DNA from: a virus
Lineage: Duplodnaviria; Caudoviricetes
Reading direction: 5' to 3' (one strand)
IMG/VR virus record: IMGVR_UViG_3300037493_003077
Coordinates: 1 to 52,190 of that record
DNA length: 52,190 nt
In this document: one piece after another, positions 23,775 to 51,824 of the stretch
Layout of the letters: every line of letters begins with the position of its first letter
Numbering within the stretch: position 1 is the first letter of the stretch
Notes under the pieces: model-generated
What the model was told of the DNA's origin: nothing
What the model saw: only the letters and a program-made list of their open reading frames with translations
Database searches by the model: none
Made by a program: the position numbers and the translations under genes

Positions 23775-23777
23775 GTG

Positions 23778-24302: not shown

Positions 24303-24323
24303 TATATACCTCCATAGTATTTA

Positions 24324-26051: not shown

Positions 26052-26052
26052 A

Positions 26053-26952: not shown

Positions 26953-26956
26953 ATTT

Positions 26957-28408: not shown

Positions 28409-29440
28409 TTAAATTATTCCTAATGCGTATAAAATTAATGGGGGTGTAAAAATATCACCAGTTCTACCATCATATGTAGAAACTCCAGCTAGTCCACCCC
28501 CAGCTCCAGATGAGTTGATTGTTATTATATTTCCAACAGAATTTATTGTAACATTGGTTCCTTGTGCCAATGTAACACCACCCGTAAATCCATTTATGGT
28601 CTGAACATATGAACCACTAATTGTTCCAGGTGTTCCGTCATTTCCTGTAGCACCTGTTGCTCCAACAACATATCCAATGGAGAATGATGCTCCGCGAATA
28701 CCAAAATTATCTACTGGTGATATCCATAAGAATCCACCAGAAAGACCAATTGCGGTATAACCAGATCCTGTAGCACCAGTATTACCTGTTGTTCCATTAT
28801 TACCAGTATTTCCAGTATTACCAGTGTTTCCTCTGATACCTGGAGAACCATCAGAACCAGTATTACCTGTATTACCTGTATTTCCTCTGATACCTGGAGA
28901 ACCATCAGTACCAGTGTTACCAGTATTTCCAGTGTTACCTCTAATACCTGGAGAACCATCAGTACCAGTATTACCAGTGTTACCTGTATTTCCTTGTATA
29001 CCTGGAGAACCAGTGTTACCTGTGTTACCAGTATTTCCAGTGTTACCTCTAATACCTGGAGAACCATCAGTACCAGTATTACCAGTGTTACCTGTATTTC
29101 CCCGTATACCTGGAGAACCATCAGTACCCGTATTACCAGTATTTCCTGTTGTTCCTAAAACATATCCTATAGAGAACGATGCTCCACGAATACCAAATCC
29201 ATCTACTGGAGAAATCCATAAGAATCCACCAGATAATCCTATAGCAGTATAACCAGATCCTGTAGCACCTGTATTTCCTGTGTTACCCGTGTTACCAGTA
29301 TTTCCAGCTGGTCCTGTTGCTCCTGTAGTACCAAAATTATCACCAACAATCAACCAAGCAGAACCATTCCAATTCCATTGAGTTCCGTTGAAAGTGTATG
29401 TTGGATTGAGGGCTGGATTTGAAGGAAAATCTAGTGGCAT
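28409..29440 (-). CDS. Collagen-like fibre protein (343 aa)
   Basis: (GNT)n and [12 protein letters not shown] triplets; two GGFLWISP modules; MPLDFP N-terminal motif. Confidence 0.85.
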   Translation of the reverse strand: MPLDFPSNPALNPTYTFNGTQWNWNGSAWLIVGDNFGTTGATGPAGNTGNTGNTGNTGATGSGYTAIGLSGGFLWISPVDGFGIRGASFSIGYVLGTTGNTGNTGTDGSPGIRGNTGNTGNTGTDGSPGIRGNTGNTGNTGNTGSPGIQGNTGNTGNTGTDGSPGIRGNTGNTGNTGTDGSPGIRGNTGNTGNTGSDGSPGIRGNTGNTGNTGNNGTTGNTGATGSGYTAIGLSGGFLWISPVDNFGIRGASFSIGYVVGATGATGNDGTPGTISGSYVQTINGFTGGVTLAQGTNVTINSVGNIITINSSGAGGGLAGVSTYDGRTGDIFTPPLILYALGII

Positions 29441-29454
29441 GGTAGTTTAATTAT

Positions 29455-29793
29455 TTATTCCCAGAATATCCTCTGAACTATATCACACGCTTCTGCTCTT
29501 GTGGATTCTTGTCCATCCCAAACAACTGCGAGTATCTCTGCTTCTTTTTGATTTGATATTGTTCTTATTGCTTGTATTGAATCTTTAATCTGTTGTGTTT
29601 CTTCATCAGACAGCAATCCAAGTGCTGCGTTTCTTTGCTTATATTCTGGAACAGCAGTGGTAATAATTTCTTTCGCCTTTTTTCTTATATGCTGCAATTG
29701 ATAAATTACACAATTATTGAAATTTCGGTTATCAATAACTATTAGATTTCCTGTAACTGTATCATGAATATGTTCTTTAAATATTTTCATCAA
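29455..29793 (-). CDS. Hypothetical protein, possible fibre chaperone
   Basis: Overlaps the stop of the collagen gene; helical, ends ...IFWE. Confidence 0.6.
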   Translation of the reverse strand: MMKIFKEHIHDTVTGNLIVIDNRNFNNCVIYQLQHIRKKAKEIITTAVPEYKQRNAALGLLSDEETQQIKDSIQAIRTISNQKEAEILAVVWDGQESTRAEACDIVQRIFWE

Positions 29794-32700
29794 AGTATCC
29801 TAAATTGCATAGATGGACATACTATTGCAATCGCTCCACTAGCATCATCAACAAATCTTACATTTGTTGCAACAGCAGGTAATGTATAACCACTACCTTC
29901 AGATGCAGCTATTGTGTTGTTATAACCAGATAATAAATCTTTTGATCCAAAGAAAGAAACCGAAGAATTTCCCTTCAATCCTTGTGCGGTTAATGTTGGA
30001 GTGCTGTCAAATACAGATGCAATCCAATAATTTCCTGGATTTAAAGTTACAAATCCACTACCATTGGTTATAGATGTGTTTACTGTTCCAGAACTAACTG
30101 CTGTAGATGGTGTACTAAACATTCTATTATTAGGCATTCCATATAAATTAATGTCATAAATTCCCATATACACATTACCAGTGGCACTAGTAGACCAACT
30201 ACTTATTCTCAATCCCTGTATTGTACACCGAGTCTGTATTACTATTGGTGCAAAATAAATTCTTTGTGCGCGTACAGGTGCTGAAGATCCACTATTATAA
30301 TTAACAGGATGATACCATACATTAGCTCCATCTTGTGTATTTGCTGTAGTTCCATCTGGGTATGTAAACAAATTTGCACTAGAAGTCATTCCATAATAGA
30401 ACTCATACACATAAGCATTTCCAGTTTTACCATTTACTCCAGTAACACCACCAGCGAATGTAATATCACCAGTTGATCCATTGAACGAAGTTACGGAATT
30501 GTGAATTCCAACAAGTGTTGTAGACACATTTGGGAATGTTATTACTGATGCAAATGTTCCACCTTCAATTGTCACATCACCACCACTAAATCCAAGAGTT
30601 CTTTGTGTTATACCACCAGAAATCAAGAATCCATCATTTGCACTGGTCATTCCTAGAATAGTAGCAACTGTAGTTCCTGCGGATGCTGTAGTTAGAGTAA
30701 TTCCTATTCCAGCAAATAGAGTTGTTCCACTACCACCAGATGTAGAAACCGTTCCCCAATAAAGTCCAGCATCGCCTCTTGTCAGTAATGCTTGACCAGT
30801 AGTTCCATTTGATGCAGGGAATGTATATCCCCAACCAGATCCATAAAATTGTATAGTTGGAGCAGTTAATTTTAATTTAACATTTGATTGAACTGTAAAT
30901 GGTGATGTTCCATTATTACCAATATAGGTAGCAGAAACAGTTGATGAGTCTGAACTAGTATTAAATTCAAGATCGGTTGCGTTCAATGAGGATGAATTCA
31001 ATCCAGTTTCTATGATAAATATCTTTGCTGTTAATGCACCAAGACTTGGAACATATGTAAATGGTGTAGCGACATCATCAATATAAATGTAAGTATTTCC
31101 AGAACCTCCAGCAAATAATGGATAGAATGTTGATGATGAATTTGTTGATCGTATATCGGTTGGACCACATGCTCCAGTAGCACCAGGGTTTCCAGTATTA
31201 CCTGTATTGCCTGTGTTACCAGTATTTCCTGTATTTCCATTGTTTCCAGTATTGCCTGTGTTTCCAGTATTTCCAGTGTTTCCCATTGACCCAACAACAT
31301 ATCCTATAGAGAATGATGCTCCGCGAATACCAAAATTATCTACTGGTGATATCCAGAGGAATCCACCAGATAATCCTATAGCAGTATAACCAGATCCTGT
31401 AGCACCAGTGTTACCAGTGTTTCCATTGTTACCAGTATTTCCAGTATTACCAGTGTTTCCATTGTTACCTGTATTGCCTGTGTTGCCAGTGTTTCCAGTA
31501 TTTCCAGTATTTCCAGTATTACCTGTGTTTCCATTATTTCCTGTATTACCTGTGTTACCAGTGTTTCCTGTATTTCCTTGAACATATCCAATGGAGAATG
31601 ATGCTCCACGAATACCAAATCCATCTATTGGTGATATCCAAAGAAACCCACCAGACAGTCCAGCGGCAGTATAACCAGATCCTGTAGCACCTGTGTTACC
31701 AGTGTTACCAGTATTTCCCGTAGAACCTGTGTTTCCCGTAGAACCTGTGTTTCCCGTAGAACCTGCAACAGTTCCTACACTAGAAGATATTGTAAATGTA
31801 TTTCCTGTCTGAGTGATTGTTATAAACGATCCAGCAGAAATACCAACATTTCCAGTTTTTCCATTGAATAGAGCAACATAATCACCAGAGACTACTCCAC
31901 TCGGACCAGTTGCTCCTTGAGGACCAGGAATTCCTTTAAGGAATTGAACCCATTGAGAAGAATCTCCGTCATAAAAATAAGTGAGCAATGCTCCAGTATT
32001 GCTATCTAACCATTGATCTCCACCAGTTGGATTGGAAGGAGCAGTTGCACCAAAAGCAAAATTAACACCACCAGATGGACCTTGAGAACCAGCAGTACCA
32101 GTATTTCCTGTGTTACCTGTATTTCCTTGAATACCTGGAGAACCAGTATTTCCTGTGTTACCTTGAATACCTGGAGAACCAGTATTTCCTGTGTTACCTT
32201 GAATACCTGGAGAACCAGTATTTCCTGTGTTACCTTGAATACCTGGAGAACCAGTATTTCCTGTATTTCCTTGAATACCTGGAGAACCAGTATTTCCTGT
32301 GTTACCTGTATTTCCTTGAATACCTGGAGAACCAGTATTTCCTGTATTTCCTTGAATACCTGGAGAACCAGTATTTCCTGTGTTACCTGTATTTCCTTGA
32401 ATACCTGGAGAACCAGTATTACCAGTATTACCTGTATTTCCTTGAATACCTGGAGAACCAGTATTACCAGTATTACCTGTATTTCCTTGAATACCTGGAG
32501 AACCAGTATTTCCTGTGTTACCTTGAATACCTGGAGAACCATCAGAACCAGTGTTACCAGTATTTCCTGTGTTACCTTGAATACCTGAAGAACCAGTATT
32601 TCCTGTGTTACCAGTGTTACCTTGAATACCTGGAGAACCAGTATTTCCTGTGTTACCTCTTATACCTTGAACACCATCAGTACCTGTATTTCCAGTATTA

Positions 32701-33113
32701 CCAGTATTTCCTCGTATACCTTGAGCACCATCAGAACCAGTATTACCAGTGTTACCTCTTATGCCTTGAGCACCATCAGTACCTGTATTACCAGTATTAC
32801 CAGTTGATCCTAAAACATATCCTATAGAGAATGATGCTCCACGAACTCCAGTATTACTTACAGGAGAAACCCAAAGGAACCCACCAGAAAGACCAATTGC
32901 AGTATAACCAGAACCAGTAGCACCTGTAGAACCTGTATTTCCTCGTATACCTTGAGCACCAGCACCACCAGCAATTGCTGGACCCAATGGAGCAGCAACC
33001 AATACTGTGGATGGTAATGTGTTGTTGACTACTAAGTTATTAGCAGAACTCTCCGTAACAATTGTGTTCGGAGGAATTTGAGTTACTACCAGTATTGGTT
33101 TCTCTTCTGCCAT
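29790..33113 (-). CDS. Collagen-like fibre protein (1107 aa)
   Basis: Long Gly-X-Y tract ([12 protein letters not shown])n, three GGFLW modules, globular C-terminal domain. Confidence 0.87.
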   Translation of the reverse strand: MAEEKPILVVTQIPPNTIVTESSANNLVVNNTLPSTVLVAAPLGPAIAGGAGAQGIRGNTGSTGATGSGYTAIGLSGGFLWVSPVSNTGVRGASFSIGYVLGSTGNTGNTGTDGAQGIRGNTGNTGSDGAQGIRGNTGNTGNTGTDGVQGIRGNTGNTGSPGIQGNTGNTGNTGSSGIQGNTGNTGNTGSDGSPGIQGNTGNTGSPGIQGNTGNTGNTGSPGIQGNTGNTGNTGSPGIQGNTGNTGNTGSPGIQGNTGNTGSPGIQGNTGNTGNTGSPGIQGNTGNTGSPGIQGNTGNTGSPGIQGNTGNTGSPGIQGNTGNTGSPGIQGNTGNTGNTGTAGSQGPSGGVNFAFGATAPSNPTGGDQWLDSNTGALLTYFYDGDSSQWVQFLKGIPGPQGATGPSGVVSGDYVALFNGKTGNVGISAGSFITITQTGNTFTISSSVGTVAGSTGNTGSTGNTGSTGNTGNTGNTGATGSGYTAAGLSGGFLWISPIDGFGIRGASFSIGYVQGNTGNTGNTGNTGNNGNTGNTGNTGNTGNTGNTGNTGNNGNTGNTGNTGNNGNTGNTGATGSGYTAIGLSGGFLWISPVDNFGIRGASFSIGYVVGSMGNTGNTGNTGNTGNNGNTGNTGNTGNTGNTGNPGATGACGPTDIRSTNSSSTFYPLFAGGSGNTYIYIDDVATPFTYVPSLGALTAKIFIIETGLNSSSLNATDLEFNTSSDSSTVSATYIGNNGTSPFTVQSNVKLKLTAPTIQFYGSGWGYTFPASNGTTGQALLTRGDAGLYWGTVSTSGGSGTTLFAGIGITLTTASAGTTVATILGMTSANDGFLISGGITQRTLGFSGGDVTIEGGTFASVITFPNVSTTLVGIHNSVTSFNGSTGDITFAGGVTGVNGKTGNAYVYEFYYGMTSSANLFTYPDGTTANTQDGANVWYHPVNYNSGSSAPVRAQRIYFAPIVIQTRCTIQGLRISSWSTSATGNVYMGIYDINLYGMPNNRMFSTPSTAVSSGTVNTSITNGSGFVTLNPGNYWIASVFDSTPTLTAQGLKGNSSVSFFGSKDLLSGYNNTIAASEGSGYTLPAVATNVRFVDDASGAIAIVCPSMQFRIL
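32090..32800. repeat. Coding tandem array of 27/36-bp units
   Basis: Many near-perfect copies of CTTGAATACCTGGAGAACCAGTATT with a variable number of 9-bp GNT units. Confidence 0.9.
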
Positions 33114-33116
33114 CTT

Positions 33117-33548
33117 TTATGCTCTCGTAATTTCTCTTGAGACTTCAAATGAACCTTCCATAAGTCTCATCACTTCATTGAGCGAGTTCTTTAATTCAAG
33201 ATCATAAAAATGCTTTCCATTTGGAACATTAGTCATAGTATCAGCATCAACTCTTAGGAATATTCCACCAGTAAATGATGCTGCTCCAGAAATAGAAGTA
33301 TTGAAACTAATTCCACCAATACCAGCAATTCCACTACCAATAGCAAATTCTCCAGTAATACCACCACCAGTAACACCATTTTGAGTTAAGAATAAAATAA
33401 CATTTGGATCTTTTGAGGATCTTCGGACTTGCATTCTTCCTGTAAAATTTCCAATATCAATTCCAGTTCCACCAGAAAATTTATAATGCAAATGCAACTT
33501 AAATGTTGCACCCTGATCTGCTTGTATATCGTACCGTGATGCTGGCAT
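33117..33548 (-). CDS. Phage structural protein (DQGATF..YDLE type, possible fibre anchor)
   Basis: YDIQADQGATF, MQVRRS, YDLEL, RLMEGSFEVSREITR. Confidence 0.72.
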   Translation of the reverse strand: MPASRYDIQADQGATFKLHLHYKFSGGTGIDIGNFTGRMQVRRSSKDPNVILFLTQNGVTGGGITGEFAIGSGIAGIGGISFNTSISGAASFTGGIFLRVDADTMTNVPNGKHFYDLELKNSLNEVMRLMEGSFEVSREITRA

Positions 33549-33563
33549 ATAATTTCTCCGTTA

Positions 33564-33571
33564 TATTTATA
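33564..33571 (-). promoter_or_regulatory. T4-type late promoter TATAAATA
   Basis: Exact match, followed by GGAGA RBS and ATG 33548. Confidence 0.75.
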
Positions 33572-33577
33572 TAATAA

Positions 33578-34129
33578 TTATGTGTCTGCTGTACCTGTAA
33601 ATCCGTCTAATACCACACCTGCATTTGATTGATTACCAATTGTGAATTCATTGCTAATTGGATATCCTCCAAAAGGAGAACTCCACGCAAAATATACAAA
33701 AGCGACATAATCGTTATTATTGACGACAACTGTATCACAATCATCACTTGAGAATGCACCAGCGGCAGTAAATCCGTGTGTCATATCACACGGTAATCTA
33801 TATTGTGGATTGCCATCTATATCTTCATTAAAAGGATCAAATGTCAATCCAGCAGGAACTCCTAGACCTACAGCTTTAATATTATATAATGTAAGACCTT
33901 CTGGTAATGGGGTCGGTGATACACGATAAAACAAATAATTATTTGTGCCTCTAACCCAAGTAAAGCTTATTGTTATGGGTGAAGCAATACCAGTTATTCG
34001 TTGTTCAGATACAGTATGTTTTTGTTCAGTTGCATTATAAATAATATCTCCCCAATTAACTGATAGACTAGTGGATCCTTGAATTTTTATTGGTGTCAGA
34101 TAAGCAGGACGACAATTAGGAAGTATCAT
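33578..34129 (-). CDS. Hypothetical beta-rich fibre-associated protein
   Basis: ATGA-coupled to the collagen gene; similar to 21994..22437. Confidence 0.68.
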   Translation of the reverse strand: MILPNCRPAYLTPIKIQGSTSLSVNWGDIIYNATEQKHTVSEQRITGIASPITISFTWVRGTNNYLFYRVSPTPLPEGLTLYNIKAVGLGVPAGLTFDPFNEDIDGNPQYRLPCDMTHGFTAAGAFSSDDCDTVVVNNNDYVAFVYFAWSSPFGGYPISNEFTIGNQSNAGVVLDGFTGTADT

Positions 34130-35799
34130 CCAGTCAATCCTCCTGCCAGATTGAATGTATCGGTGGTATAAGAAATCAAACTTACAGCAGCATGTTGACC
34201 AGCAATATTTTTCTGATTCTGGAAACTATTGATTATCACACCACTAGCGGCACTTATTCCAACATTTCCAGTATTGAGACGAATAACTGTTGTTGTGTGA
34301 CCGATGGGCAATCCAGTAGGAACAGTAAGTGTGATTCCAGAAGTAGAATCCATGGTTATAATTTTGCCGCTATCTGATCCTAGCATAGTATAACTTGCTG
34401 TTTTGACATTGATTGCACCAGCTGTTATTCTATACCCAGAATCTGATGTGATACCAGAAGCAGAAATTCCACTATAAGAATTAAATGATCCAAATAAAGT
34501 CATTCCACCAGAGGCGGTGATGCCAGCATTGAATACTTGACGAACAGTAAAGGTATTTCCAAGATTGGTAAATGCCACATTTGTTATAGCACCTGTAGCA
34601 CCATTGATTGATGTAACACCTTGAATATTACCAGTTCTTCCATTGAATGTAATGACATAATCCCCAACTGGACCTGTAGCACCCGTGTTTCCCGTTGACC
34701 CAACAACATATCCTATAGAGAATGATGCTCCACGAATACCAAATCCATCTATAGGTGATATCCAAAGGAACCCACCAGACAGTCCAGCGGCGGTATATCC
34801 ATAACCAGTAGCACCTGTGTTACCAGTATTACCTGTATTTCCAGTATTGCCTGTATTTCCATTGTTACCTGTATTTCCTGTATTGCCTGTGTTACCCGTT
34901 GACCCAACAACATATCCTATAGAGAATGATGCTCCACGAATACCAAATCCATCTATAGGTGATATCCATAAGAATCCACCAGAAAGACCAGCGGCGGTAT
35001 ATCCATAACCAGTTGCTCCAGTAGCACCTGTGTTTCCTGTGTTACCATTATTGCCTGTATTGCCAGTGTTACCAGTCCCACCAGCACCACCAATAATAGC
35101 AATCGTATAGGTGTTTCCAGATTTGTTTAGAGTGATTCCAGAACCAGCAGAGATCCCAACAGCACCAGTACTTCCATTTATTGAAGCAACATACTGCAAA
35201 TTGCTATTCAGTAATGTTCCTGTGGTCGCTGGCAGAGTATGATCTAAATTTTCAGTCTGTGAAGCCTGTGGTTTAATGTTATTGTTATATGAAGTTTCAC
35301 TTCCATCAGATCCCTGTAGTCTGAGTGTAGCATTCGCTCCTGGCAGAACATTGGTTGCAATAGTCAGCAGTGCTGCTGCATTCTGAACTGTCGTGGCAGT
35401 TGATGCAAGAGTGGTGAGACTTCCACCAAAATAATTCTGTCCATTGTTCGAGGGATTGAATGATGCTATAGAAGATACAGTTATAGAAGCAGAGGTAATG
35501 CCAGCATTCATTACTTGTTTGACAGTAAATGTATTTCCAAGATTTGTAAATGCCACATTTATTATAGCACCTGTAGCACCATTGATTGATGTGACACCTT
35601 GAATGTTACCAGTTCTTCCATTGAATGTAATGACATAATCACCAACTGGACCAGTTGCTCCAGTATTACCAGTAGCACCAGTGTTACCCAAAAGTGGAGT
35701 AGAATAAACTGTCCACGAATCACCAGTCCACTTCCAAGAAGAAGTGCCAAAGGTATAAATGTAATTCAGTGCTGGGGATGGAGGGAAATCTAATGGCAT
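34126..35799 (-). CDS. Collagen-like fibre protein (557 aa)
   Basis: MPLDFP N-terminus, GNT tracts, two GGFLWISP modules, C-terminal TASYT..SDSGK..TLTVP..LAGGL domain. Confidence 0.85.
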   Translation of the reverse strand: MPLDFPPSPALNYIYTFGTSSWKWTGDSWTVYSTPLLGNTGATGNTGATGPVGDYVITFNGRTGNIQGVTSINGATGAIINVAFTNLGNTFTVKQVMNAGITSASITVSSIASFNPSNNGQNYFGGSLTTLASTATTVQNAAALLTIATNVLPGANATLRLQGSDGSETSYNNNIKPQASQTENLDHTLPATTGTLLNSNLQYVASINGSTGAVGISAGSGITLNKSGNTYTIAIIGGAGGTGNTGNTGNNGNTGNTGATGATGYGYTAAGLSGGFLWISPIDGFGIRGASFSIGYVVGSTGNTGNTGNTGNNGNTGNTGNTGNTGNTGATGYGYTAAGLSGGFLWISPIDGFGIRGASFSIGYVVGSTGNTGATGPVGDYVITFNGRTGNIQGVTSINGATGAITNVAFTNLGNTFTVRQVFNAGITASGGMTLFGSFNSYSGISASGITSDSGYRITAGAINVKTASYTMLGSDSGKIITMDSTSGITLTVPTGLPIGHTTTVIRLNTGNVGISAASGVIINSFQNQKNIAGQHAAVSLISYTTDTFNLAGGLTG

Positions 35800-35813
35800 C
35801 TATTATCCTTTAA

Positions 35814-35821
35814 TATTTATA
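35814..35821 (-). promoter_or_regulatory. T4-type late promoter TATAAATA
   Basis: Exact match, followed by AAGGA RBS and ATG 35799. Confidence 0.75.
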
Positions 35822-35833
35822 GTTCATAACGAA

Positions 35834-38467: not shown

Positions 38468-38482
38468 AGTTTACTATAGCAC

Positions 38483-38490
38483 TATTTATA
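38483..38490 (-). promoter_or_regulatory. T4-type late promoter TATAAATA
   Basis: Exact intergenic match 15 nt before ATG 38467. Confidence 0.75.
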
Positions 38491-38495
38491 CAAAA

Positions 38496-39710: not shown

Positions 39711-39725
39711 AATTAATACAATTCT

Positions 39726-42299: not shown

Positions 42300-42344
42300 A
42301 ATATTTAATTCCAATTGTTAACCAATGTTACTAACATTGTATTA

Positions 42345-43073: not shown

Positions 43074-43077
43074 TTAA

Positions 43078-43242
43078 TTACCATCCTATAAATTTATCTT
43101 TTGTTTCCAATTTAAATTTTACATTTAAATTCAAATTGTATTTTTTAATTAAGTTTTTATTGTTGAAAGTTTTTGAATAAGTCGGAATAGACATAAATGG
43201 TACATTATTGTCATATGCAATAAGAAAGTACAGTTTACGCAT
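43078..43242 (-). CDS. Small ORF of 54 aa, absent from the ORF track (MRKLYFLIAYDNN...DKFIGW)
   Basis: Translated by hand; ATG overlaps the upstream stop and the ORF fills the gap to the next gene. Confidence 0.45.
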   Translation of the reverse strand: MRKLYFLIAYDNNVPFMSIPTYSKTFNNKNLIKKYNLNLNVKFKLETKDKFIGW

Positions 43243-44242: not shown

Positions 44243-45030
44243 CGTATATAATCCTTAAATTTTTCAATGTTCTGTTGTACATACACTGGTAGAGTATTTA
44301 TATGATCCACAACCAAGTTAATTCCTTCATTGGTTCTCCCAAGAACATCAGTTAAATTTTCTCTATACATTTTCAATGAATCAAGCGTGATGTAATCAAA
44401 TTCAGTATGAGCATAGTTATCTATTATGTTTTTCATGTTTTCCGCAGATCCAATGCACGAAAAATGCCATCCTCCATTTACTATGCTTGGATACTGACTA
44501 TTGGTTAAAGATGACTTAAACTGTTGAGTGCCAATTTTATCAATTGTGGATTTAGTTGCTATTCCAGCATGACTCCACCTAATCCCACATGCTCTAGTAT
44601 TTAAATACCAATAATAAAGATTTTGCGCAAATGTATAAGATCCTCCATCCCATTTTTCTTTTACTTCTTTAAGTTTTTGACATGAAATAATTTCATCCAC
44701 ATCTGCAATTATGATTAAATCATTTTCGGATGCATCTACAATTCCTTTTGTTATCATTCGTCTTTGTAATTGATCATTATCATGAGCCCAATGTTTGGTA
44801 GTATGCGGTTTATAGAATTGATCTGCGCCAATCACAACATGTATTATTTTATCAAGAAATGGTTTAAATCTATCTTTATTTTCTTTAAAGTATAAATTTT
44901 TTTCTTTGTACTGATGTGTTAATTCTGCTTCAACCAAAACAAAATAATCAACTTCAGAATTTAGTTCATTTAATCTAATTTCAAGAATATCTAATTCATT
45001 ATAAAATTGAAAACAATCATAAACTTTCAT
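44239..45030 (-). CDS. GT17-like glycosyltransferase
   Basis: YDCFQFYNELDILEIRLNEL, ADVDEI, GGWHFS. Confidence 0.82.
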   Translation of the reverse strand: MKVYDCFQFYNELDILEIRLNELNSEVDYFVLVEAELTHQYKEKNLYFKENKDRFKPFLDKIIHVVIGADQFYKPHTTKHWAHDNDQLQRRMITKGIVDASENDLIIIADVDEIISCQKLKEVKEKWDGGSYTFAQNLYYWYLNTRACGIRWSHAGIATKSTIDKIGTQQFKSSLTNSQYPSIVNGGWHFSCIGSAENMKNIIDNYAHTEFDYITLDSLKMYRENLTDVLGRTNEGINLVVDHINTLPVYVQQNIEKFKDYIR

Positions 45031-45715
45031 AATCGTTCCATCTTTCAATTATTTTCGAAACCATAGGGATAAATAATCCACTATGAAATCCAAATGTAGT
45101 TTCTAGTTCCTGTTCTGTTACTAGCATACTTCCAAGAGCAAATTTCTTTGCAAATTCTCCTGTTGGGAAAATACAACCCATCTGTTCAAAATAATTTCTA
45201 AGAGATACACATATAATAATATCTTCACCCATTCCAGAATTGGTCATCTTAGAAATAAATTCTTTATTTAGATTTGCTCCTGCCTGTAATAGTTTTTTAC
45301 TTCTCAAGCAAAATCCACCGCATCCCACTTCATGTTTAGGTTCAATTACCCACGGAAAGTGTCCTGGTTTCATATGTATCCATGGACACCCTATGTAATC
45401 GTAATTGAAAAATTCATCAGTCCAGTTTGTTGGTTTACAAATATAACCATCTGTTTGTACAATTAAACAATAATCAGTATTTACATAAGAATTCAAGTCA
45501 GTGATACAAAAAGTATTATATTCTGGATATGACATGTTTTCAATATTATGAATTATAATTTTATCATTAGATTTTATGTTTTTATCTGATGTAATTAAAA
45601 TTACAGACCCAAACTGTATTTTGCGAGTACATATATCAATAACATCAAGAATTTTTTCAGTATCTTTGCCAGTACCATCTATTGTTACCAAAGTTATTTT
45701 TGATAATTCAATCAT
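45017..45715 (-). CDS. DUF5672-like putative glycosyltransferase
   Basis: VQTDG, YDYIGCPW, VGCGGFCLRSKKL, EDI, FGFH. Confidence 0.78.
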   Translation of the reverse strand: MIELSKITLVTIDGTGKDTEKILDVIDICTRKIQFGSVILITSDKNIKSNDKIIIHNIENMSYPEYNTFCITDLNSYVNTDYCLIVQTDGYICKPTNWTDEFFNYDYIGCPWIHMKPGHFPWVIEPKHEVGCGGFCLRSKKLLQAGANLNKEFISKMTNSGMGEDIIICVSLRNYFEQMGCIFPTGEFAKKFALGSMLVTEQELETTFGFHSGLFIPMVSKIIERWNDYESL

Positions 45716-46323
45716 CCATTATCTCTTTTCAAAACAGTAAGACCATTACAGTTTGTAAAAATTTCATGAATTTTCCATTGCGGATTTTCAATAATAAATT
45801 TTTCAATAGCAGTCCATATTCCATCACCCTCAAGGATGGGGGATCCAGTAGCCTCTCCTGGCTCATTTGTGAATCGGTAATTCACTGTGTCATGAAATAT
45901 TAAATACTTTCTTGCTTTATTGCCATGCAATTTTAATTCTGTTGTAATTTGATTATGCGTGTGTAAAGTGTCAATAAAAAGTAAATCGGTTTCTTCTATT
46001 TCTATCTTGGTGGTATCTCCTAGAATAAATTGATAATCAATATTATTTAAAGAACAATAATCTATTATGCCATTCATTCTATCTCCGCATTGATGACTGT
46101 CCCAGTGCAATGATTCTTGTGTAAGATTGCGCGGATCAACTATATCAATTGATATAAATTTCTTAGGTTTAGCGACAGCAAATGCAAAAGTTGATACAAC
46201 CCAACGGACTCCCAGTTCTATCACATGGTCGCATTCACTTGCATACCGTTTTAGTGTTGGTAGATGTTCATTTATGTCTGATGGCGAATTGCATAACGCA
46301 CTATAACATTGTTCAACATTCAT
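45712..46323 (-). CDS. Methyltransf_24-like SAM methyltransferase
   Basis: SDINEHLP, ELGVR, DLLFIDTLH, IFHDT, NGLTVL. Confidence 0.8.
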   Translation of the reverse strand: MNVEQCYSALCNSPSDINEHLPTLKRYASECDHVIELGVRWVVSTFAFAVAKPKKFISIDIVDPRNLTQESLHWDSHQCGDRMNGIIDYCSLNNIDYQFILGDTTKIEIEETDLLFIDTLHTHNQITTELKLHGNKARKYLIFHDTVNYRFTNEPGEATGSPILEGDGIWTAIEKFIIENPQWKIHEIFTNCNGLTVLKRDNG

Positions 46324-46324
46324 A

Positions 46325-46990
46325 TTAAATTTCCTTTATTAAGAAGCACCCGCATGGGAGTTTGCCTAGATCTGCTTCAAACACATTTAATTTTTTATTT
46401 GTTATTGGTTCATATAAATGTGTATGCCCTTTTTCTTTAAAGAAATGCCGTATAGCGGCATGAGCCTCTTGCAAGCATGAATCATCAAATATAATATATC
46501 CACCAATAGAGACTTTATCATACAATCCATACAATACATCGAGTGTTGCACTAAATGCATCAACATCAATTCTTAATAATGAAATTTGTTTAATTCTGCA
46601 TGTTTCTAAGTTTAATGTGTCTTTAACAAATCCTTTTAAAAACTGAATTCTAGGTTCATCCAAAGCATCAAACATTTTAAAATTATGTCTTACTGTTTCT
46701 AAATCTATTGCATAGCTACCCGCACCGTGCCTCTCCCTTTCATAATAATATGTACTTGTTTGTCTATCTTCTATTCCCTCATATGAGTCGCATACCCATA
46801 TATTCTTATCATGAAAAATCTTGCTCAAAAATATGCTCATACCCCCAAGCCATACTCCACATTCAACAACATCACCATCTATTTTTTCTATATGTTCTTT
46901 GTGTTCTATAATCATATCAAATCTTTCCTCACTAACCATCGTAATTTGATTGTTGATTATCATATTTTTTAAAGTAACTATTTCTTTCAT
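46325..46990 (-). CDS. TylF/MycF/NovP-family sugar O-methyltransferase
   Basis: GDVVECGVWLGG, DSYEG, KGFVKDTL, LRIDVD, GGYIIFDD. Confidence 0.85.
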   Translation of the reverse strand: MKEIVTLKNMIINNQITMVSEERFDMIIEHKEHIEKIDGDVVECGVWLGGMSIFLSKIFHDKNIWVCDSYEGIEDRQTSTYYYERERHGAGSYAIDLETVRHNFKMFDALDEPRIQFLKGFVKDTLNLETCRIKQISLLRIDVDAFSATLDVLYGLYDKVSIGGYIIFDDSCLQEAHAAIRHFFKEKGHTHLYEPITNKKLNVFEADLGKLPCGCFLIKEI

Positions 46991-46991
46991 T

Positions 46992-47516
46992 TTATTCTCC
47001 AATAATTGCCCAACTATAATCAGAAAAAACTTTAATTTTTTCAATATTAAATAAACTATTTACTGCTTGACTTACTTCAAATAATGTTGGACTATCTGGT
47101 ATATAATCATGTCCAGACATTATTCCAGTTTTTTTTAATTTTGGAAGACTAACATTTATATCATGTACTACAGAATGAAAAGAATGATCTGCGTCAATAT
47201 AAATAAAATCATAATAATCATCAATTAAATTTGGAACTATTTGAGAAATACTTCCTTGTTTAAAATTAATGTTTTTATGAAAATTTAAAATATTTTTCAT
47301 TTTTTCTGTTAAAATTATATCAACAGTATCAACAACATCAGCATAGTATGCAAATAAAGATGTGCTAACTCCATCATTACAACCTAATTCTAGAACTTTA
47401 TGATTTTTGTTCATTTTAAAAAATAAACAAAGTTCATCTAATCCTTCTATATAATTAACTCCACCAGCATCTCCCATTCCATGCATTCTTTCTTGTTTTA
47501 AATTTGGTTTATTCAT
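46992..47516 (-). CDS. Methyltransf_24-like SAM methyltransferase
   Basis: LELGCNDGVST, DFIYIDADH, GIMSGHDY. Confidence 0.82.
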   Translation of the reverse strand: MNKPNLKQERMHGMGDAGGVNYIEGLDELCLFFKMNKNHKVLELGCNDGVSTSLFAYYADVVDTVDIILTEKMKNILNFHKNINFKQGSISQIVPNLIDDYYDFIYIDADHSFHSVVHDINVSLPKLKKTGIMSGHDYIPDSPTLFEVSQAVNSLFNIEKIKVFSDYSWAIIGE

Positions 47517-47518
47517 TT

Positions 47519-48514
47519 TTATTTTATTCTCCAATAATTGTATATACCAATGTCAAGTTCGTATTTAGTCCACAATTTTCTCTCTCGCATTGGTTGGGTC
47601 TTTGCCCATTCCCACATAGAGGTGAGTCCATCTTTTAAAGATGTGACTTGTTTGTATCCAAGAACATCTTTGATCTTATCATGAGTTACCCACGCATCCT
47701 TAACTTCGTGGCGTTGTTCAAGATGAACTTTGTCGCCACATCCTATCACATCTATTAATAGATTGCAAACATTATTTATAGTAATATGATCATCTCCCCC
47801 AATATTAAATATCTGTTTTGATGCTCTATCGTCTGTAGCACCCATCCAAAAATAAGGAACACAATCATCTACATAACTGAACGCTCTCGTTTGTTCCCCA
47901 TCACCATAAATGGTCATTGGTAGTTTATTTAGATGTAAATACATCCAAATTCCTAGAACATTTCTATACTTATCCCAGATGTTTTGCTTTACACCATATA
48001 CATTGTGGGGTCTAAATATACACCAATCAAGCCCATGTTGTTCTCCTGCAACATGAAGATCCATCTCACATGCATACTTTGCAATACCATATGGGTCTAT
48101 TGGTGCTTGCTGGTGTGATTCCTTGAACGGAACTTCACCATTACCATAAACTGCCATGGTTGATGTAAATACAAATCTTTTGATGTTGTATTTGATACTA
48201 AGATTAATTAACTTTGTAGTTGCAATGAGATTGTTTTCGTAGTTATACTGCCTAATGAAAGGACTCAACCCTTCAGCAGCATATGCGGCAAAATGAAAGA
48301 CATAATCAAATTTATGTTCCTTGAAAAGATATTCAAGTCTTTTGCTATTGCTTGTAAGATCGTAATTATAAAAAACAACTTTGGGATTTACATTTTGAAT
48401 GTATCCCCCTGAGAGATTATCAACACCATACACTGTTGCCTTATCGTTATCAATCAACCAATCAGCAAGACGAGAACCCAAAAGACCAGCAACACCAGTA
48501 ATTAAAACTTTCAT
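47519..48514 (-). CDS. NAD-dependent sugar-nucleotide epimerase/dehydratase
   Basis: ITGVAGLLG, HFAAYAAE, YGIAK, GDGEQTRAF. Confidence 0.9.
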   Translation of the reverse strand: MKVLITGVAGLLGSRLADWLIDNDKATVYGVDNLSGGYIQNVNPKVVFYNYDLTSNSKRLEYLFKEHKFDYVFHFAAYAAEGLSPFIRQYNYENNLIATTKLINLSIKYNIKRFVFTSTMAVYGNGEVPFKESHQQAPIDPYGIAKYACEMDLHVAGEQHGLDWCIFRPHNVYGVKQNIWDKYRNVLGIWMYLHLNKLPMTIYGDGEQTRAFSYVDDCVPYFWMGATDDRASKQIFNIGGDDHITINNVCNLLIDVIGCGDKVHLEQRHEVKDAWVTHDKIKDVLGYKQVTSLKDGLTSMWEWAKTQPMRERKLWTKYELDIGIYNYWRIK

Positions 48515-49212
48515 ATATTCTCCAATAATTTTACTTTGTTTGGATGAGTTTCGTCACAATGAAACCCAAAACTATCGTCCGATGATAACATAAGATCATC
48601 TACTAATGTACTTTCACATGAAAAGTTTGCTGCTGTTATTGTGTCAGGGAACTTACATCCAAAAGTCTCTAACTGTTTTCTCATGCAAATAGAAATTACT
48701 ACATCTTCTGGAATATTTTCATACTCTTTATTATACATGTTTTTAACTACATTGAGTAGTTTTTTTGATCTCATACTAAACCCACCATTTCCTACTGTAT
48801 ATTTACACATAGACTCTTTCAATCTTTGATGTGCTAAAGACCATCTTTGAGTATTAATGTATAGCATATTAGAAGACCAAGGTGCTCCAATATAATCATA
48901 ATTAAAAAACTTAAAAGACCAATGATTTTTATTGACAATAAATCCATCATTTTGGACGATGATTATATACTCTGTATCAATGTAATCTACAATATTATTA
49001 AGTGTGAAGTATTGACATTCATCCCAAGACATTTTATCAATTTTTATAGTCTTTCCGATGGTAATATCATGATTAGAACATGAGAATACTTTTATATCAC
49101 CAAAAGTTATATCCTTGCTAGAATATTTCAAAGCCTTTATCAGGCGTGTATCGTCGCCGACACCATCAATCCCAACTAATGTAACATTTGATAGGTTAAG
49201 AATATTTGGCAT
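48511..49212 (-). CDS. DUF5672-like putative glycosyltransferase (paralog of 45017..45715)
   Basis: VQNDG, YDYIGAPW, VGNGGFSMRSKKL, EDV, FGFH. Confidence 0.8.
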   Translation of the reverse strand: MPNILNLSNVTLVGIDGVGDDTRLIKALKYSSKDITFGDIKVFSCSNHDITIGKTIKIDKMSWDECQYFTLNNIVDYIDTEYIIIVQNDGFIVNKNHWSFKFFNYDYIGAPWSSNMLYINTQRWSLAHQRLKESMCKYTVGNGGFSMRSKKLLNVVKNMYNKEYENIPEDVVISICMRKQLETFGCKFPDTITAANFSCESTLVDDLMLSSDDSFGFHCDETHPNKVKLLENI

Positions 49213-49576
49213 ATGACTTCTCTTCCATAATATCTGAATTGCTCAATTTATTAATTTTATTCTTAATATCAAATCTCATATCGTTTACGACATAAACTGA
49301 ACGAGCGAGTTTGATGAACTCATCATCAAACTCTAATTTAGATTCTTTGGTTCTGATTTCGTCCTCTACAACCCACAATTTTTCATTTATTGATTTTAGA
49401 TTGGATATTTCATCAGAAAATATAGTGAAATAATTCTTTGCGAACAAACAATTGGATATTACTTCCAACTCTTTGTGAATATTTTCCAACTTGGAACTAT
49501 CACTTATTCTTTCGTGTTTTATACACAATATAGTGTATTTGTCAATAACTTCACCCACAGATACATCAATCATCAT
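49196..49576 (-). CDS. DUF6165-like protein
   Basis: VSVGEVIDKYTIL, INEKLWVVEDEIR, ARSVY..ND.R..IK, EEKSY. Confidence 0.72.
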   Translation of the reverse strand: MMIDVSVGEVIDKYTILCIKHERISDSSKLENIHKELEVISNCLFAKNYFTIFSDEISNLKSINEKLWVVEDEIRTKESKLEFDDEFIKLARSVYVVNDMRFDIKNKINKLSNSDIMEEKSYAKYS

Positions 49577-50313
49577 ACTATATAATTCCAATCTTTTTTA
49601 TAAATGTGATCTACATAGGAAAAATCTGGATTCTGCAATCTGCCATTCACCTTTCGTGAATACATGTTCAGTTTTCCTTTAGTATTTAGGTTTTCAACGA
49701 GATAGCAAAGTGAAGTTTCAACTGTATGGATCTCCAGAGCATTTTCTATAACCCAGCACAGATCAAATACATTGAATAACTTAATGTGTTCTGGTTTATG
49801 ATATACACATTTTATATTTGAATTTGTAATATTTACTTCCCTGTATACCATATCAGGTGGAGAAGCAAACATATTATTCACAAAAATAAATGGTTCGTTC
49901 TTTATACCAAGGATTTCCTTACAACGAATCTCTCGTTCTTGATTTCGTTCAAATTGCAAATAATCTTTCCAATTATTTTCATTGACATCAAATCCCATGA
50001 ATTGCATCAACAGATACTTGCCCTTCATCGGTAGCACACCAAATCTATGATGTGAAATATCAAATGGAATATATACAAATTCTTCTGTATTGATTGCAAT
50101 TGGTGTCTTATAACATTCCTTACGAGGAAAATTTTCATTTACATTTACAAAATTGATTCCCTTGATGTAATCTTTGATGTATAGGAATTCTGGAATCACA
50201 GGCCATATAACTTCATATCCTAAAGATATGAAATGTCTTGCTGCCTTCTGTAAGAAGAATATATCACCAATTCCTGCTGGTTGCCAAAATAAAACTTGTT
50301 TATTCACTTGCAT
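49573..50313 (-). CDS. Hypothetical glycosyltransferase-like protein
   Basis: GIGDI N-terminal motif, IHTVETS; cluster context. Confidence 0.55.
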   Translation of the reverse strand: MQVNKQVLFWQPAGIGDIFFLQKAARHFISLGYEVIWPVIPEFLYIKDYIKGINFVNVNENFPRKECYKTPIAINTEEFVYIPFDISHHRFGVLPMKGKYLLMQFMGFDVNENNWKDYLQFERNQEREIRCKEILGIKNEPFIFVNNMFASPPDMVYREVNITNSNIKCVYHKPEHIKLFNVFDLCWVIENALEIHTVETSLCYLVENLNTKGKLNMYSRKVNGRLQNPDFSYVDHIYKKDWNYIV

Positions 50314-50968
50314 TACCTACTAAGTTAAATTTCACGACCTCTTCTCGAAGACCCATTTCTCTCAGTGAATTTTCTTTGGATTTTCCATCAGCAATCCCCA
50401 TTGTTATCATTGGCGTGAATCCTTCTGGCAATGATGTTCCAGGCCATATGGCATATGGATGTCCAAGCATACCAATTCGCATCTTGGGTAAAAATTCAGG
50501 AAGAACTTCACTCATCAGAACTTCATGATCAAATAATTTCACACCCAAATTCATTTCATTGAATTCGCATCGTTCAACCCAGTAAGTCAAACACTGTATG
50601 GTATTTTCTGTATAATTTATATAAATTGGTGATGCTTTGGGTAAATTGGGATTCACATCTGGAGGATTGCCTTGATATGCAAATGCCATATCGCAGTTGT
50701 CTTTCAGTGTATCAAATATAGAAAGTTCAGCATGAATCAAAGAATCCACATCCATCCACACAAATGGTCGTTTCTTTTCTTCTAACACAGAAAGAATAAA
50801 TCTTGGTTTAGCAAGACAATTTAAACGGTATTCGCCACGCGAAGGTAATTCGCGAATATCATGTGGAATATTATTCTCATTGCAATTGATTCTCAGACGA
50901 CGCGCGTGATCGCTATAGTATGTACGATCATCTATATCACAATAAAAGGATACAATTTCAGTTTTCAT
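50300..50968 (-). CDS. Putative nucleotide-diphospho-sugar transferase (GT-A)
   Basis: KPRFIL..L, VWMDVDS DxD motif. Confidence 0.68.
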   Translation of the reverse strand: MKTEIVSFYCDIDDRTYYSDHARRLRINCNENNIPHDIRELPSRGEYRLNCLAKPRFILSVLEEKKRPFVWMDVDSLIHAELSIFDTLKDNCDMAFAYQGNPPDVNPNLPKASPIYINYTENTIQCLTYWVERCEFNEMNLGVKLFDHEVLMSEVLPEFLPKMRIGMLGHPYAIWPGTSLPEGFTPMITMGIADGKSKENSLREMGLREEVVKFNLVGNASE

Positions 50969-51797
50969 TGATTAGTTTAAATAATTGATCATCAGCAGAA
51001 ACAAGTTCTTTAACCCGATTAAAGTTGTCTCTTACTGCGTCAAGTTTACTTTCATATAGTTCTTTTGTCAATGTTTTTGGATCAAAATCTGGAGTTAATT
51101 CTATAATTCCATCTTTGTTGAAGATATCACCAATATCTGGTGCTCCCCAATATACTGGTATTGTTCCCGTAGCAAAACAATCAGTTATTTTCTCTGTATA
51201 ATATGTACTGTACTTATCATTTTCAACAGTAATAGAAAACATATAATCATTCAGTCCTTCAGACTTATCACCCCACGGAACACCTGGACTTAATCTACGA
51301 GATCCAAGAACTCCACCATACAGATCAAGGTTATTTTTATATTGTTCTGCTAATTGATGACGAATAGCATGTCCAAATGCAAATTTCTTGGGAGAAGCAA
51401 TCATAGATGCTAATTTTGTTTTTGGAAAAATATCTTGGTTCTTTATCCATGGAAGATTACTTCCTGCTGGACAGTATCTTACCTTTGGATGTTTTCCCAA
51501 CCAACTCTTCTCAGAAGTAAAAAGAAGATCATATGAATCACAAATATTTAAAAATTGCTCTTCCCAAACTTCTCTTGGAAAGTTCATTGCATGAAAAATA
51601 GCACGGGATTCACAAACCCATGCTATTTTCATTGTTCCAGGTTTCTTCTGATAAGACATTCCGATGGCAATTCCACCATCTATAAAAACTTTTACAGGAA
51701 AGTCTTCAGCGATCCAACTGAATGATTGTGGCAATAAATTAGAATTTGATGAATATTCTATTTGAAATGGAGCACCAATTGCTTGCATTTTTTTCAT
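50958..51797 (-). CDS. GT10 (fucosyltransferase-like) glycosyltransferase
   Basis: YMFSITVEN...YYTEKITDCFATGTIPVYWG. Confidence 0.82.
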   Translation of the reverse strand: MKKMQAIGAPFQIEYSSNSNLLPQSFSWIAEDFPVKVFIDGGIAIGMSYQKKPGTMKIAWVCESRAIFHAMNFPREVWEEQFLNICDSYDLLFTSEKSWLGKHPKVRYCPAGSNLPWIKNQDIFPKTKLASMIASPKKFAFGHAIRHQLAEQYKNNLDLYGGVLGSRRLSPGVPWGDKSEGLNDYMFSITVENDKYSTYYTEKITDCFATGTIPVYWGAPDIGDIFNKDGIIELTPDFDPKTLTKELYESKLDAVRDNFNRVKELVSADDQLFKLINEN

Positions 51798-51824
51798 AAT
51801 ATAAAATCTCCACACTTATATATG

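Follow-up and report, generated by a model that had tools for sequence, protein, structure and literature searches.

Gene content of the locus

The window analysed here, the whole of IMG/VR record IMGVR_UViG_3300037493_003077 (52,190 bases; completeness estimate 29%), derives from an uncultured freshwater T4-like phage in which a proposed glyco-fibre module is inserted between regA and the dUTPase and gp43 genes. The module consists of an island of sugar-related genes, a family 2 glycosyltransferase with a tetratricopeptide repeat (TPR)-like domain (hereafter GT2-TPR), and four genes for collagen-like fibre proteins rich in threonine. T4-like myophage genes in the window encode RegA, gp43 (in two pieces), UvsX, gp41 helicase, gp61 primase, ThyX, ribonucleotide reductase and dUTPase; the gp41 helicase shares 56-61% identity with its counterparts in cyanomyophages, Pelagibacter phage HTVC008M and Methylophilales phage Melnitz. 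At the level of run listings, near-identical DNA occurs in freshwater, lake and sediment metagenome runs from at least 13 studies; three metatranscriptome runs contain 5-11% of the sampled words, shares too small to speak for expression. All long open reading frames (ORFs) but one lie on the minus strand.

The preliminary description of this DNA, made from its letters without database searches, had noticed about 14 tightly packed, co-oriented glycan-related genes. As delimited here, the island, between regA and the four collagen-like genes, comprises 15 co-oriented minus-strand ORFs running from 51815 to 38496, and the last of these ORFs encodes GT2-TPR. Adjacent ORFs overlap or are at most 30 nt apart, with the sole exception of a 161-nt gap at 43073/43235. 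Twelve of the 15 pass the cut-off of a Pfam family, and three (50300-50968, 49573-50313 and 42345-43073) have no significant family match, the first two having none in Pfam, PHROG or NCBIfam. From the regA side, the genes are:

51825..52181, minus strand: regA, T4 translational repressor (Pfam Translat_reg, 132 bits), the upstream edge of the variable slot
50958..51815, minus strand: GT10-family (fucosyltransferase-like) glycosyltransferase (Pfam Glyco_transf_10, 29.8 bits; cut-off 23.9)
50300..50968, minus strand: unnamed 222-aa protein in which D-V-D comes after a hydrophobic strand and which travels with GT10 in relatives
49573..50313, minus strand: unnamed 246-aa protein, no family match, with homologues in relatives' islands
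49196..49591, minus strand: DUF6165 protein (Pfam, 39.2 bits)
48511..49212, minus strand: DUF5672 protein, copy 1 (Pfam, 82 bits)
47519..48514, minus strand: nucleoside diphosphate (NDP)-sugar epimerase/dehydratase of the short-chain dehydrogenase/reductase (SDR) superfamily (Pfam Epimerase, 157 bits; phrog_540)
46992..47534, minus strand: class I methyltransferase (Methyltransf_24; Pfam, 51.1 bits)
46325..47044, minus strand: TylF/macrocin-type sugar O-methyltransferase (Pfam TylF, 136 bits)
45712..46323, minus strand: CmcI/rhamnosyl O-methyltransferase-like protein (Pfam RMNT_CmcI, 23.8 bits; cut-off 23.2)
45017..45715, minus strand: DUF5672 protein, copy 2 (Pfam, 71.6 bits)
44239..45048, minus strand: GT17-family glycosyltransferase (Pfam Glyco_transf_17, 77 bits)
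43235..44242, minus strand: SDR resembling GDP-fucose synthase or GDP-mannose 3,5-epimerase (Pfam Epimerase, 148.7 bits)
42345..43073, minus strand: unnamed 242-aa protein, weakly GT2-like (Glycos_transf_2, E 0.011, under the cut-off)
39726..42314, minus strand: 862-aa fusion of an SDR, a cupin-like region and an NDP-hexose C-methyltransferase (Epimerase, 90.6 bits; Methyltransf_13, 55.6 bits; Methyltransf_14, 135.5 bits)
38496..39710, minus strand: GT2-TPR, a 404-aa putative protein glycosyltransferase of the SunS/ThuS/GmaR/SgtA type with a GT2 (GT-A) domain (Pfam GT2, 54.4 bits) and a TPR-like domain, the conserved anchor of the module

The SDR at 43235..44242 scores 113 bits with NCBIfam GDPFucSynFcl, under the cut-off of that model, and has cyanophage homologues at about 70% DNA identity. 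The three-part fusion protein had been recognised beforehand: its SDR and C-methyltransferase parts are above cut-off, and its cupin part is weak (Cupin_2, E 1e-3; Polysacc_synt_C, 8e-4). By context, the DUF5672 and DUF6165 proteins and the three unnamed ORFs are candidate glycan-acting proteins; a literature search on DUF5672 found nothing relevant, and the motif of the 222-aa protein (50300..50968) hints that it is possibly a GT-A glycosyltransferase. No island protein (0/15) reaches a Kyte-Doolittle hydropathy of 1.6 in a 19-residue window, and neither this island nor those of four relatives contain Pfam families for the membrane parts of an O-antigen, capsule or lipopolysaccharide (LPS) assembly locus (polyprenyl-phosphate transferase, flippase, ABC transporter, polymerase, ligase). 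The absence of transmembrane-like segments and of flippase, polymerase and transporter families suggests that the island is a soluble, cytoplasmic system.

Collagen-like fibre genes and a probable fibre-docking protein

The stop codon of the GT2-TPR gene is 28 nt from the ATG of the first collagen-like gene, as had been noticed earlier, and the fibre module continues on the same strand:

35834..38467, minus strand: collagen-like fibre protein, 877 aa (Pfam Collagen, 130 bits; PHROG tail-fibre families; 90 triplets, Thr at 66 Y positions)
34126..35799, minus strand: collagen-like fibre protein, 557 aa (Pfam Collagen, 27.7 bits; 24 triplets, 20 Thr)
33578..34129, minus strand: 183-aa protein with a weak, sub-cut-off Ig-domain match
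33117..33548, minus strand: 143-aa Ig-like protein, probable fibre-docking protein (phrog_1084)
29790..33113, minus strand: collagen-like fibre protein, 1107 aa (Pfam Collagen, 188.4 bits; 126 triplets, 80 Thr)
29455..29793, minus strand: 112-aa protein, kept after the 1107-aa fibre gene in close relatives
28409..29440, minus strand: collagen-like fibre protein, 343 aa (Pfam Collagen, 78.9 bits; 51 triplets, 32 Thr)
21530..28398, minus strand: rest of the fibre module, with a Gly-rich protein (Gly_rich_2) and further fibre-like proteins (PHROG tail families)
21530-22015, minus strand: tail-fibre assembly chaperone (Phage_tail_APC, 60 bits)

All four collagen-like genes pass the Pfam Collagen cut-off (27.2), and PHROG tail-fibre families match them as well. 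Counted over Gly-X-Y tracts of six or more triplets, Thr occupies 198 of the 291 Y positions (66/90, 20/24, 80/126 and 32/51), so that the preliminary description was right to place Thr at most of them; Asn is the main residue at X. At 12 places a conserved stretch of some 35 residues breaks the tracts (5, 2, 3 and 2 copies across the four proteins); it matches no Pfam family and might serve to register or knot the triple-helical segments on either side. A tblastn search of the 557-aa protein against 50,697 phage records returned two weak partial matches alone.

The predicted structure of the 143-aa protein (predicted local distance difference test score, pLDDT, 88.3) resembles in Foldseek 7qg9_L (E 1e-6, TM 0.59) and 8hqz_Q (2e-6), 140-residue chains of the T5 and DT57C tail tips which we take to be the fibre-bearing collar protein (T5 LtfC/p132). 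A protein atlas lead to LtfC (score 0.94) agrees with the fold match, and the model thus points to a probable fibre-docking protein. Its family has nearly invariant Thr residues in Gly-rich loops (T60, T65).

Sequence and predicted fold of the GT2-TPR enzyme

The enzyme scores 54.4 bits with Pfam Glycos_transf_2 against a cut-off of 23.3, which places it in that family, and its residues D36 and D90-A-D92-D93 are invariant in 41 of 41 phage homologues. A profile of these 41 homologues, compared with the sequence set of the Protein Data Bank (PDB), has as its top matches GmaR (1.7e-15), SunS (1e-11) and ThuS (2e-10), and wall-teichoic-acid and polysaccharide enzymes appear in the same search at E 4e-4 or worse. 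The structure predicted with the 41 homologues (pLDDT 92.5; predicted TM score 0.83) has an N-terminal GT-A domain from residue 1 to about residue 165, followed by ten helices. In Foldseek the whole model matches SunS and ThuS with E values of 2e-16 to 4e-15 over 395-402 columns, SunS at 2e-16 over 395; the structural comparison with SunS that had been suggested as a check thus yields a full-length match. The next matches are teichoic-acid transferases (TarS, TarP and RmlT) at about 1e-6, and the C-terminal helical half matches consensus TPR proteins. The NCBIfam SunS model TIGR04195 gives 46.8 bits against an equivalog cut-off of 350: GT2-TPR is a relative of SunS and not a SunS equivalog. 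Sequence and fold matches together therefore indicate a soluble enzyme with GT-A and TPR-like domains; all of its closest characterised relatives have peptides or proteins as substrates.

The last 40 or so residues of the enzyme (38496-38610) form a Lys-rich tail that is predicted with low confidence (pLDDT about 58) and is poorly conserved among relatives. A tblastn search for GT2-TPR in cultured phages matched 13 records, none of them a cyanophage or pelagiphage.

Thr-rich collagen genes beside bacterial homologues

A scan of one genome per prokaryote species found 593 confirmed relatives of GT2-TPR, of which the best 80 (78 loci) were examined with up to 8 kb on each side. Loci were divided into a full-length class (match of at least 280 residues; 57 loci) and a control class in which the N-terminal catalytic domain alone is matched (21 loci), and a collagen ORF was called Thr-rich if Thr occupied at least 40% of its Y positions. 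Such an ORF lies within 1 kb of 23 of the 57 full-length homologues, within 2 kb of 26 and within 8 kb of 29, and within 8 kb of none of the 21 catalytic-domain-only homologues (Fisher p = 9.3e-6). Such neighbours are found in Streptomyces, Bacillus marasmi, Desulfosporosinus, Chloroflexia, several Clostridia, and Alpha- and Gammaproteobacteria, as compact units of two or three genes amid unrelated housekeeping genes. In an 8.9-Mb Streptomyces genome with six collagen places, the top-scoring one adjoins the GT2 gene; in B. marasmi, two of the three collagen ORFs in the genome adjoin the homologue. With the B. marasmi enzyme, whose gene follows two Thr-rich collagen genes, the window enzyme shares 33% identity over 380 aa (E 6e-63), and with a clostridial GT2-TPR encoded directly upstream of a collagen gene it shares 24% over 349 residues (E 2e-19). 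These bacterial neighbourhoods are the strongest new evidence for a tie between the enzyme and collagens and, with the matches to GmaR, SunS and ThuS, they lend good support to the earlier proposal of a protein glycosyltransferase associated with Thr-rich collagens.

A quick IQ-TREE search on 89 rows (24 of the 41 phage enzymes, the 57 bacterial ones and 8 of the 21 N-terminal-only ones) places the phage enzymes in one clade (SH-aLRT 100), sister (98) to enzymes of Mycobacteriaceae and one betaproteobacterial metagenome-assembled genome. Collagen-associated bacterial clades lie on both deeper sides of the phage and mycobacterial clades.

The possibility that high GC content creates spurious collagen frames in Streptomyces was considered and rejected, because Pfam Collagen passes its cut-off there and collagen is rare, with its six places in 8.9 Mb. 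In Mycolicibacterium, the single collagen-like ORF of the genome lies 1.6 kb from the homologue and is of the PGRS type rather than a true Thr-rich collagen. At L085 (Mycolicibacterium parafortuitum, 6870-14473), the one locus of the sister clade that was annotated, the homologue is longer (565 aa) and flanked by two methyltransferases; the Gly-rich PGRS-repeat protein 1 kb from it is possibly a different Gly-rich substrate.

A fixed enzyme and an exchangeable island in related phages

IMG/VR contains at least 130 relatives of the enzyme, from which 80 loci (49-100% identity) were kept and grouped into 47 clusters at 90% identity. Their neighbourhoods are fragments with 10-kb flanks, and a cluster was considered informative if at least 3 kb were available downstream of the GT2-TPR gene (31/47). 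The enzyme keeps one slot: regA is seen on its upstream side in 10 clusters, and dUTPase on its downstream side in 16. A collagen gene follows within 10 kb downstream in 20 of the 31 informative clusters, and in 19 of the 47 clusters the docking-protein gene starts within 40 nt after the GT2-TPR gene, usually followed in turn by a collagen gene. Farther afield, gp35 of Tunturiibacter phage Tunturi_5 is 36.6% identical to GT2-TPR and is encoded about 4 kb from tail-fibre gp29 (95 triplets, 58 Thr), and in the huge phage LR756502 a 1947-aa ORF with 58 triplets (31 Thr) lies 6 kb from a GT2-TPR homologue.

The island behaves otherwise. L011 has 98.8% DNA identity with the window across the GT2-TPR gene and the start of the first fibre gene, and no DNA similarity upstream, the break falling 9 nt before the GT2-TPR ATG. 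L003, 94.6% identical over the GT2-TPR stretch, does not have the fusion gene and has some island genes in common with the window (70-92%). In four other relatives every island is again sugar-related, and the enzyme sets differ; they include GT47-like, GT92, GT34-like and GT25 glycosyltransferases, UDP-galactopyranose mutase, NeuB, DegT aminotransferases, GDP-mannose dehydratase, cytidylyltransferases and FkbM methyltransferases. Wherever relatives have an island, it is co-oriented and tightly packed and ends exactly at the GT2-TPR start. The island is thus a swappable cassette, replaced wholesale while the enzyme stays.

Relatives L026 (4351-6924) and L064 (13947-15854) have BclA-like Gly-Pro-Thr collagens with Thr at 89-93% of Y positions, and one of these two genes lies upstream of regA, outside the usual slot. 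The 642-kb genome of the uncultured huge phage LR756502.1 has in common with the window 34% of positions 38450-46400, from the fusion gene to the SDR, at 68% DNA identity, and carries its own GT2-TPR homologue about 100 kb from that sugar stretch; this likeness suggests that phages of very different lineages exchange sugar genes.

A late-promoter-like motif

The window contains 11 copies of the T4-late-promoter-like motif TATAAATA, where 5.3 are expected (at least 11 in 2 of 100 shuffles), nine of the 11 on the coding strand. In T4-type late genes the motif would stand at about -10, shortly ahead of the start codon. The copies at the module are:

44295-44302, coding strand: 52 nt upstream of the second SDR (43235..44242)
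39761..39768, minus strand: exact copy 50 nt upstream of the GT2-TPR ATG, within the end of the fusion gene
38483..38490, minus strand: about 15 nt upstream of the 877-aa collagen gene
35814..35821, minus strand: about 14 nt upstream of the 557-aa collagen gene
33564..33571, minus strand: about 15 nt upstream of the docking-protein gene

Three fibre-module genes (those of the 877-aa and 557-aa collagens and the docking protein) therefore start about 14-17 nt after the motif. An exact TATAAATA lies at most 120 nt upstream of the GT2-TPR start in 13 of the 47 relative clusters, mostly about 15 nt away, and NATAAATA is present in 20 of the 47. The copy at 39761..39768, on the coding strand, is the one from which late expression of the enzyme had been proposed; with the motif standing also before the fibre genes and near the GT2-TPR start in relatives, expression of the enzyme late and together with the fibre genes is plausible. 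Over 33000-52190, sigma-70 promoter-like sites (70 against 94.6 expected) and terminator-like sites (9 against 7.9 expected) are uninformative.

Proposed function and alternatives

On the strength of sequence, predicted structures and analogy, we consider it on balance probable that the locus is a fibre-glycosylation module, in which GT2-TPR starts O-glycosylation of the fibres and the variable island supplies sugars and further enzymes. The first part of such a module would be soluble enzymes that remodel nucleotide sugars (three SDR domains, the cupin-like region and the C-methyltransferase), transfer them (GT10, GT17 and perhaps others) and O-methylate them; the second would be the conserved GT-A and TPR-like glycosyltransferase of the peptide- or protein-acting kind; and the third would be the small Ig-like docking protein and the four collagen-like fibre proteins of Gly-Asn-Thr triplets. 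Late in infection, in the host cytoplasm, GT2-TPR would attach the initial sugar to hydroxyl-bearing side chains in the fibre proteins, most likely to Thr at the Y position of Gly-X-Thr; transferases and methyltransferases of the island would extend and cap this sugar; and the fibres, presumably as part of the virion, would leave the cell with a methylated deoxy-sugar glycan. With the island exchanged as a unit, even close relatives among the phages would bear different glycans. The preliminary description proposed stability, shielding or host-surface mimicry as the benefit, and the glycan may have any of these roles. A protein glycosyltransferase tied to Thr-rich collagens is well supported, much better than an island that feeds the same glycan.

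A number of observations weigh against the proposal, some of them concerning the enzyme and its expression. The TPR-like domain named in the preliminary description is clear in the predicted fold and is sub-threshold by sequence (TPR_2, E 0.0039; designed TPRs, E 0.0015). The window's copy of TATAAATA before GT2-TPR lies inside the preceding gene and farther from the ATG than the copies at the fibre genes; no exact copy is near the GT2-TPR start in 34 of the 47 relative clusters, and in the group of relatives that reads regA-GT2-dUTPase the motif precedes the GT2-TPR gene in none. Others concern the collagens. Among bacteria, 28 of the 57 full-length homologues have no Thr-rich collagen ORF within 8 kb, and the mycobacterial sister clade was scored as lacking one. 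The adjacency of enzyme and collagen whose conservation in related phages had been put forward as a check is found in the 20 informative clusters described above; the other 11 of the 31 have no collagen gene within 10 kb downstream, and in three clusters (14 loci) the order is regA-GT2-dUTPase, no island or fibre gene lying between. Pfam Collagen searches of four regA-GT2-dUTPase records found collagen genes about 22 kb away in two of them, Gly-Ala-Thr tracts included, and none in the other two, one of which is 77 kb long and 42% complete. A Thr-rich tract is present in 17 of the 47 clusters when all DNA is considered, or in 12 of the 23 loci of at least 15 kb; the collagen after the docking protein is often charged and Thr-poor (Thr at 0-11% of Y positions); and in LR756501 and LR745206 the 12 kb around the homologue contain no collagen. 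Finally, what ties the island to the enzyme is position, and the absence of membrane proteins from the island is not decisive, because soluble transferases also act on lipid-linked intermediates.

The alternative that survives best, though we judge it unlikely, is that the island, with or without GT2-TPR, alters the LPS, capsule or another envelope glycan of the host during infection, which would block superinfection or keep progeny from sticking to debris. Polysaccharide loci typically contain enzymes of the GT10, GT17, GT25, SDR and DegT types, cyanophage genes match the epimerase at about 70% DNA identity, hypervariability fits a host-surface target too, and glycosyltransferases in the tail-fibre region of pelagimyophages are read as O-chain modifiers in the published account of that region (PMC7029224). 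Against such remodelling stands the lack of membrane-type proteins among the 15 island proteins and of the corresponding Pfam families in the islands of four relatives. Moreover, every island in the relatives abuts a glycosyltransferase whose nearest relatives act on proteins, and that glycosyltransferase carries late-promoter motifs and is followed by virion genes.

Somewhat more doubtful is the idea that GT2-TPR modifies a different virion or host protein, for example the docking protein, and that its proximity to collagens reflects a shared hyperplastic region. The docking-protein gene directly follows GT2-TPR in the 19 clusters mentioned, four of which (L062, L063, L065 and L076) then continue to dUTPase with no fibre gene; the docking-protein family has the near-invariant T60 and T65 in its Gly-rich loops; and the three clusters with no fibre nearby, as well as the frequent Thr-poor collagens, fit this idea equally. 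Against it, no docking-protein homologue accompanies the bacterial pairs, which comprise the enzyme and a Thr-rich collagen alone, and two of the four regA-GT2-dUTPase records searched have collagen genes elsewhere on the contig, Thr-rich tracts among them.

A third alternative, which we regard as improbable, combines two unrelated systems: GT2-TPR would add a single host-derived sugar to the fibres, and the island would make another product, perhaps a glycan of the host surface or a small metabolite bearing sugar. Two points speak against such a division: the substrates of TylF- and CmcI-type O-methyltransferases are sugars that an acceptor already carries, and every island in the relatives, its genes closely spaced and in one orientation, stops exactly where GT2-TPR starts. 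Its appeal is that some relatives have the enzyme and no island, that the bacterial GT2-collagen pairs have no extra sugar genes alongside, and that the published description of SgtA (PMC7157674) reports no extending enzyme identified in vitro. Glycosylation of phage DNA, as in the glucosylation of hydroxymethylcytosine by T4, has in its favour that T4-like phages are the classic case and that the window encodes ThyX, dUTPase and a DNA methylase, and is nevertheless very hard to credit, since no hydroxymethylase was seen in the window, 15 genes with O- and C-methyltransferases far exceed known DNA sugar systems, and the enzyme's relatives act on peptides.

Comparison with characterised systems

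SunS and ThuS are cytoplasmic peptide S-glycosyltransferases that modify Cys of small bacteriocin (glycocin) precursors. GT2-TPR resembles them (PDB 7msn, 7msp and 7msk) over its full length, as a GT-A domain followed by a helical TPR-like domain, and differs from them in its surroundings, in which there is no glycocin precursor gene and the neighbours are the C-methyltransferase fusion and the collagen-like fibre genes. GmaR of Listeria, a GT2 enzyme with TPRs, is a cytoplasmic flagellin O-GlcNAc transferase that doubles as an anti-repressor. It is the best PDB sequence match (PDB 22ao; residues 2-98, 1.7e-15), a match limited to the first 100 or so residues of a 204-residue chain, and its substrate is flagellin, a filament protein.

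The closest analogy for the module as a whole is the SgtA-BclA3 pair of Clostridioides difficile, to which the preliminary description had already pointed and with whose published biochemistry (PMC7157674) the analogy agrees. There, SgtA is described as a GT-A domain with four TPRs, encoded immediately upstream of bclA3, which in vitro transfers beta-O-GlcNAc onto Thr (and Ser) of collagen-repeat peptides; its product is extended by other enzymes, none of which, by the same description, could be identified in vitro. The phage locus likewise has a GT-A and TPR-like enzyme gene beside a Thr-bearing collagen-like gene, and clostridial homologues of the window enzyme adjoin Thr-rich collagen genes. 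It differs in its setting (phage tail fibres rather than spores), in its Gly-Asn-Thr rather than Pro-containing repeats, and in its 12-kb hypervariable sugar island. The likeness to SgtA is one of architecture and gene neighbour as described in print; the sequence comparison is with clostridial homologues, at 23-26% identity.

Mycobacteriophages encode glycosyltransferases that decorate their own virion proteins (cited in PMC12619734 and PMC12801897), with glycans at the C-termini of capsid and tail-tube subunits according to the summary in PMC12619734. Compared with those summaries, the present candidate acceptors are collagen-like fibres, the enzyme belongs to another family, and the sugar island is large and swappable. 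In pelagimyophages and cyanomyophages, a 'host recognition cluster' has been described (PMC7029224) that, like the present locus, is a hypervariable region of aquatic T4-like phages mixing tail-fibre, glycosyltransferase and sugar genes; its glycosyltransferases are interpreted there as modifiers of the host O-chain, and the passages of that study on the cluster do not single out a protein glycosyltransferase.

Phage virion glycosylation, in mycobacteriophages, and collagen O-glycosylation by a GT-A/TPR enzyme, on C. difficile spores, are thus known already. A search of the open-access literature returned no report of a phage glycosylating collagen-like fibres and none of a general pairing of the GT2-TPR family with Thr-rich collagens.

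Implications for aquatic T4-like phages

Sugar and glycosyltransferase blocks of marine and freshwater T4-like phages have, to our knowledge, been called host 'LPS' genes for two decades without test. The locus offers a concrete alternative to that label, in which the enzyme is named, the peptide substrate defined (Gly-Asn-Thr repeats) and the product predicted. Very tentatively, a 'virion glycan code' may be envisaged in a large aquatic T4-like lineage, in which a fixed initiating enzyme stays beside the fibre genes, the cassette is swapped between near-identical phages, and the fibres bear strain-specific, methylated, eukaryote-like glycans as a second, non-protein layer of host-range or anti-defence specificity. 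Such a code would be the viral mirror of bacterial O-antigen diversity, and many genes of cyanophages and pelagiphages annotated as auxiliary 'LPS' or 'cell-wall' genes would be virion-building genes. Should the fibre-glycosylation proposal hold, some of the most abundant lake phages would commonly have glycosylated tail fibres, and the swapping of glycans would be a new axis of phage host range and evasion of host defences. The SgtA-BclA3 pair would be generalised from one spore former to a widespread enzyme-substrate module; under the more tentative glycan code, the GT2-TPR/Thr-collagen pair would be a single ancient module of spores, bacterial surface fibres and phages.

Other features of the window

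The first 2 kb of the window have a strong AT skew (0.25). The sole long plus-strand ORF (16-1419, 467 aa) and the 1139-aa minus-strand ORF at 1502-4921 match no Pfam or PHROG family. The 250-aa product of 5319-6071 has at its C-terminus a dockerin type I domain (27.8 bits), which is unusual in a T4-like phage, and TATAAATA stands upstream of this ORF at 6088-6095. The gp43 polymerase is split into two ORFs, an N-terminal part at 17319-18800 and a C-terminal part at 13544-14695. The 2.6 kb or so between them contain a SpoU-type RNA methylase gene (16757-17296) and two or three unnamed ORFs, and two further copies of TATAAATA, at 14975 and 15667, lie in this split-gp43 region (13544-18800).

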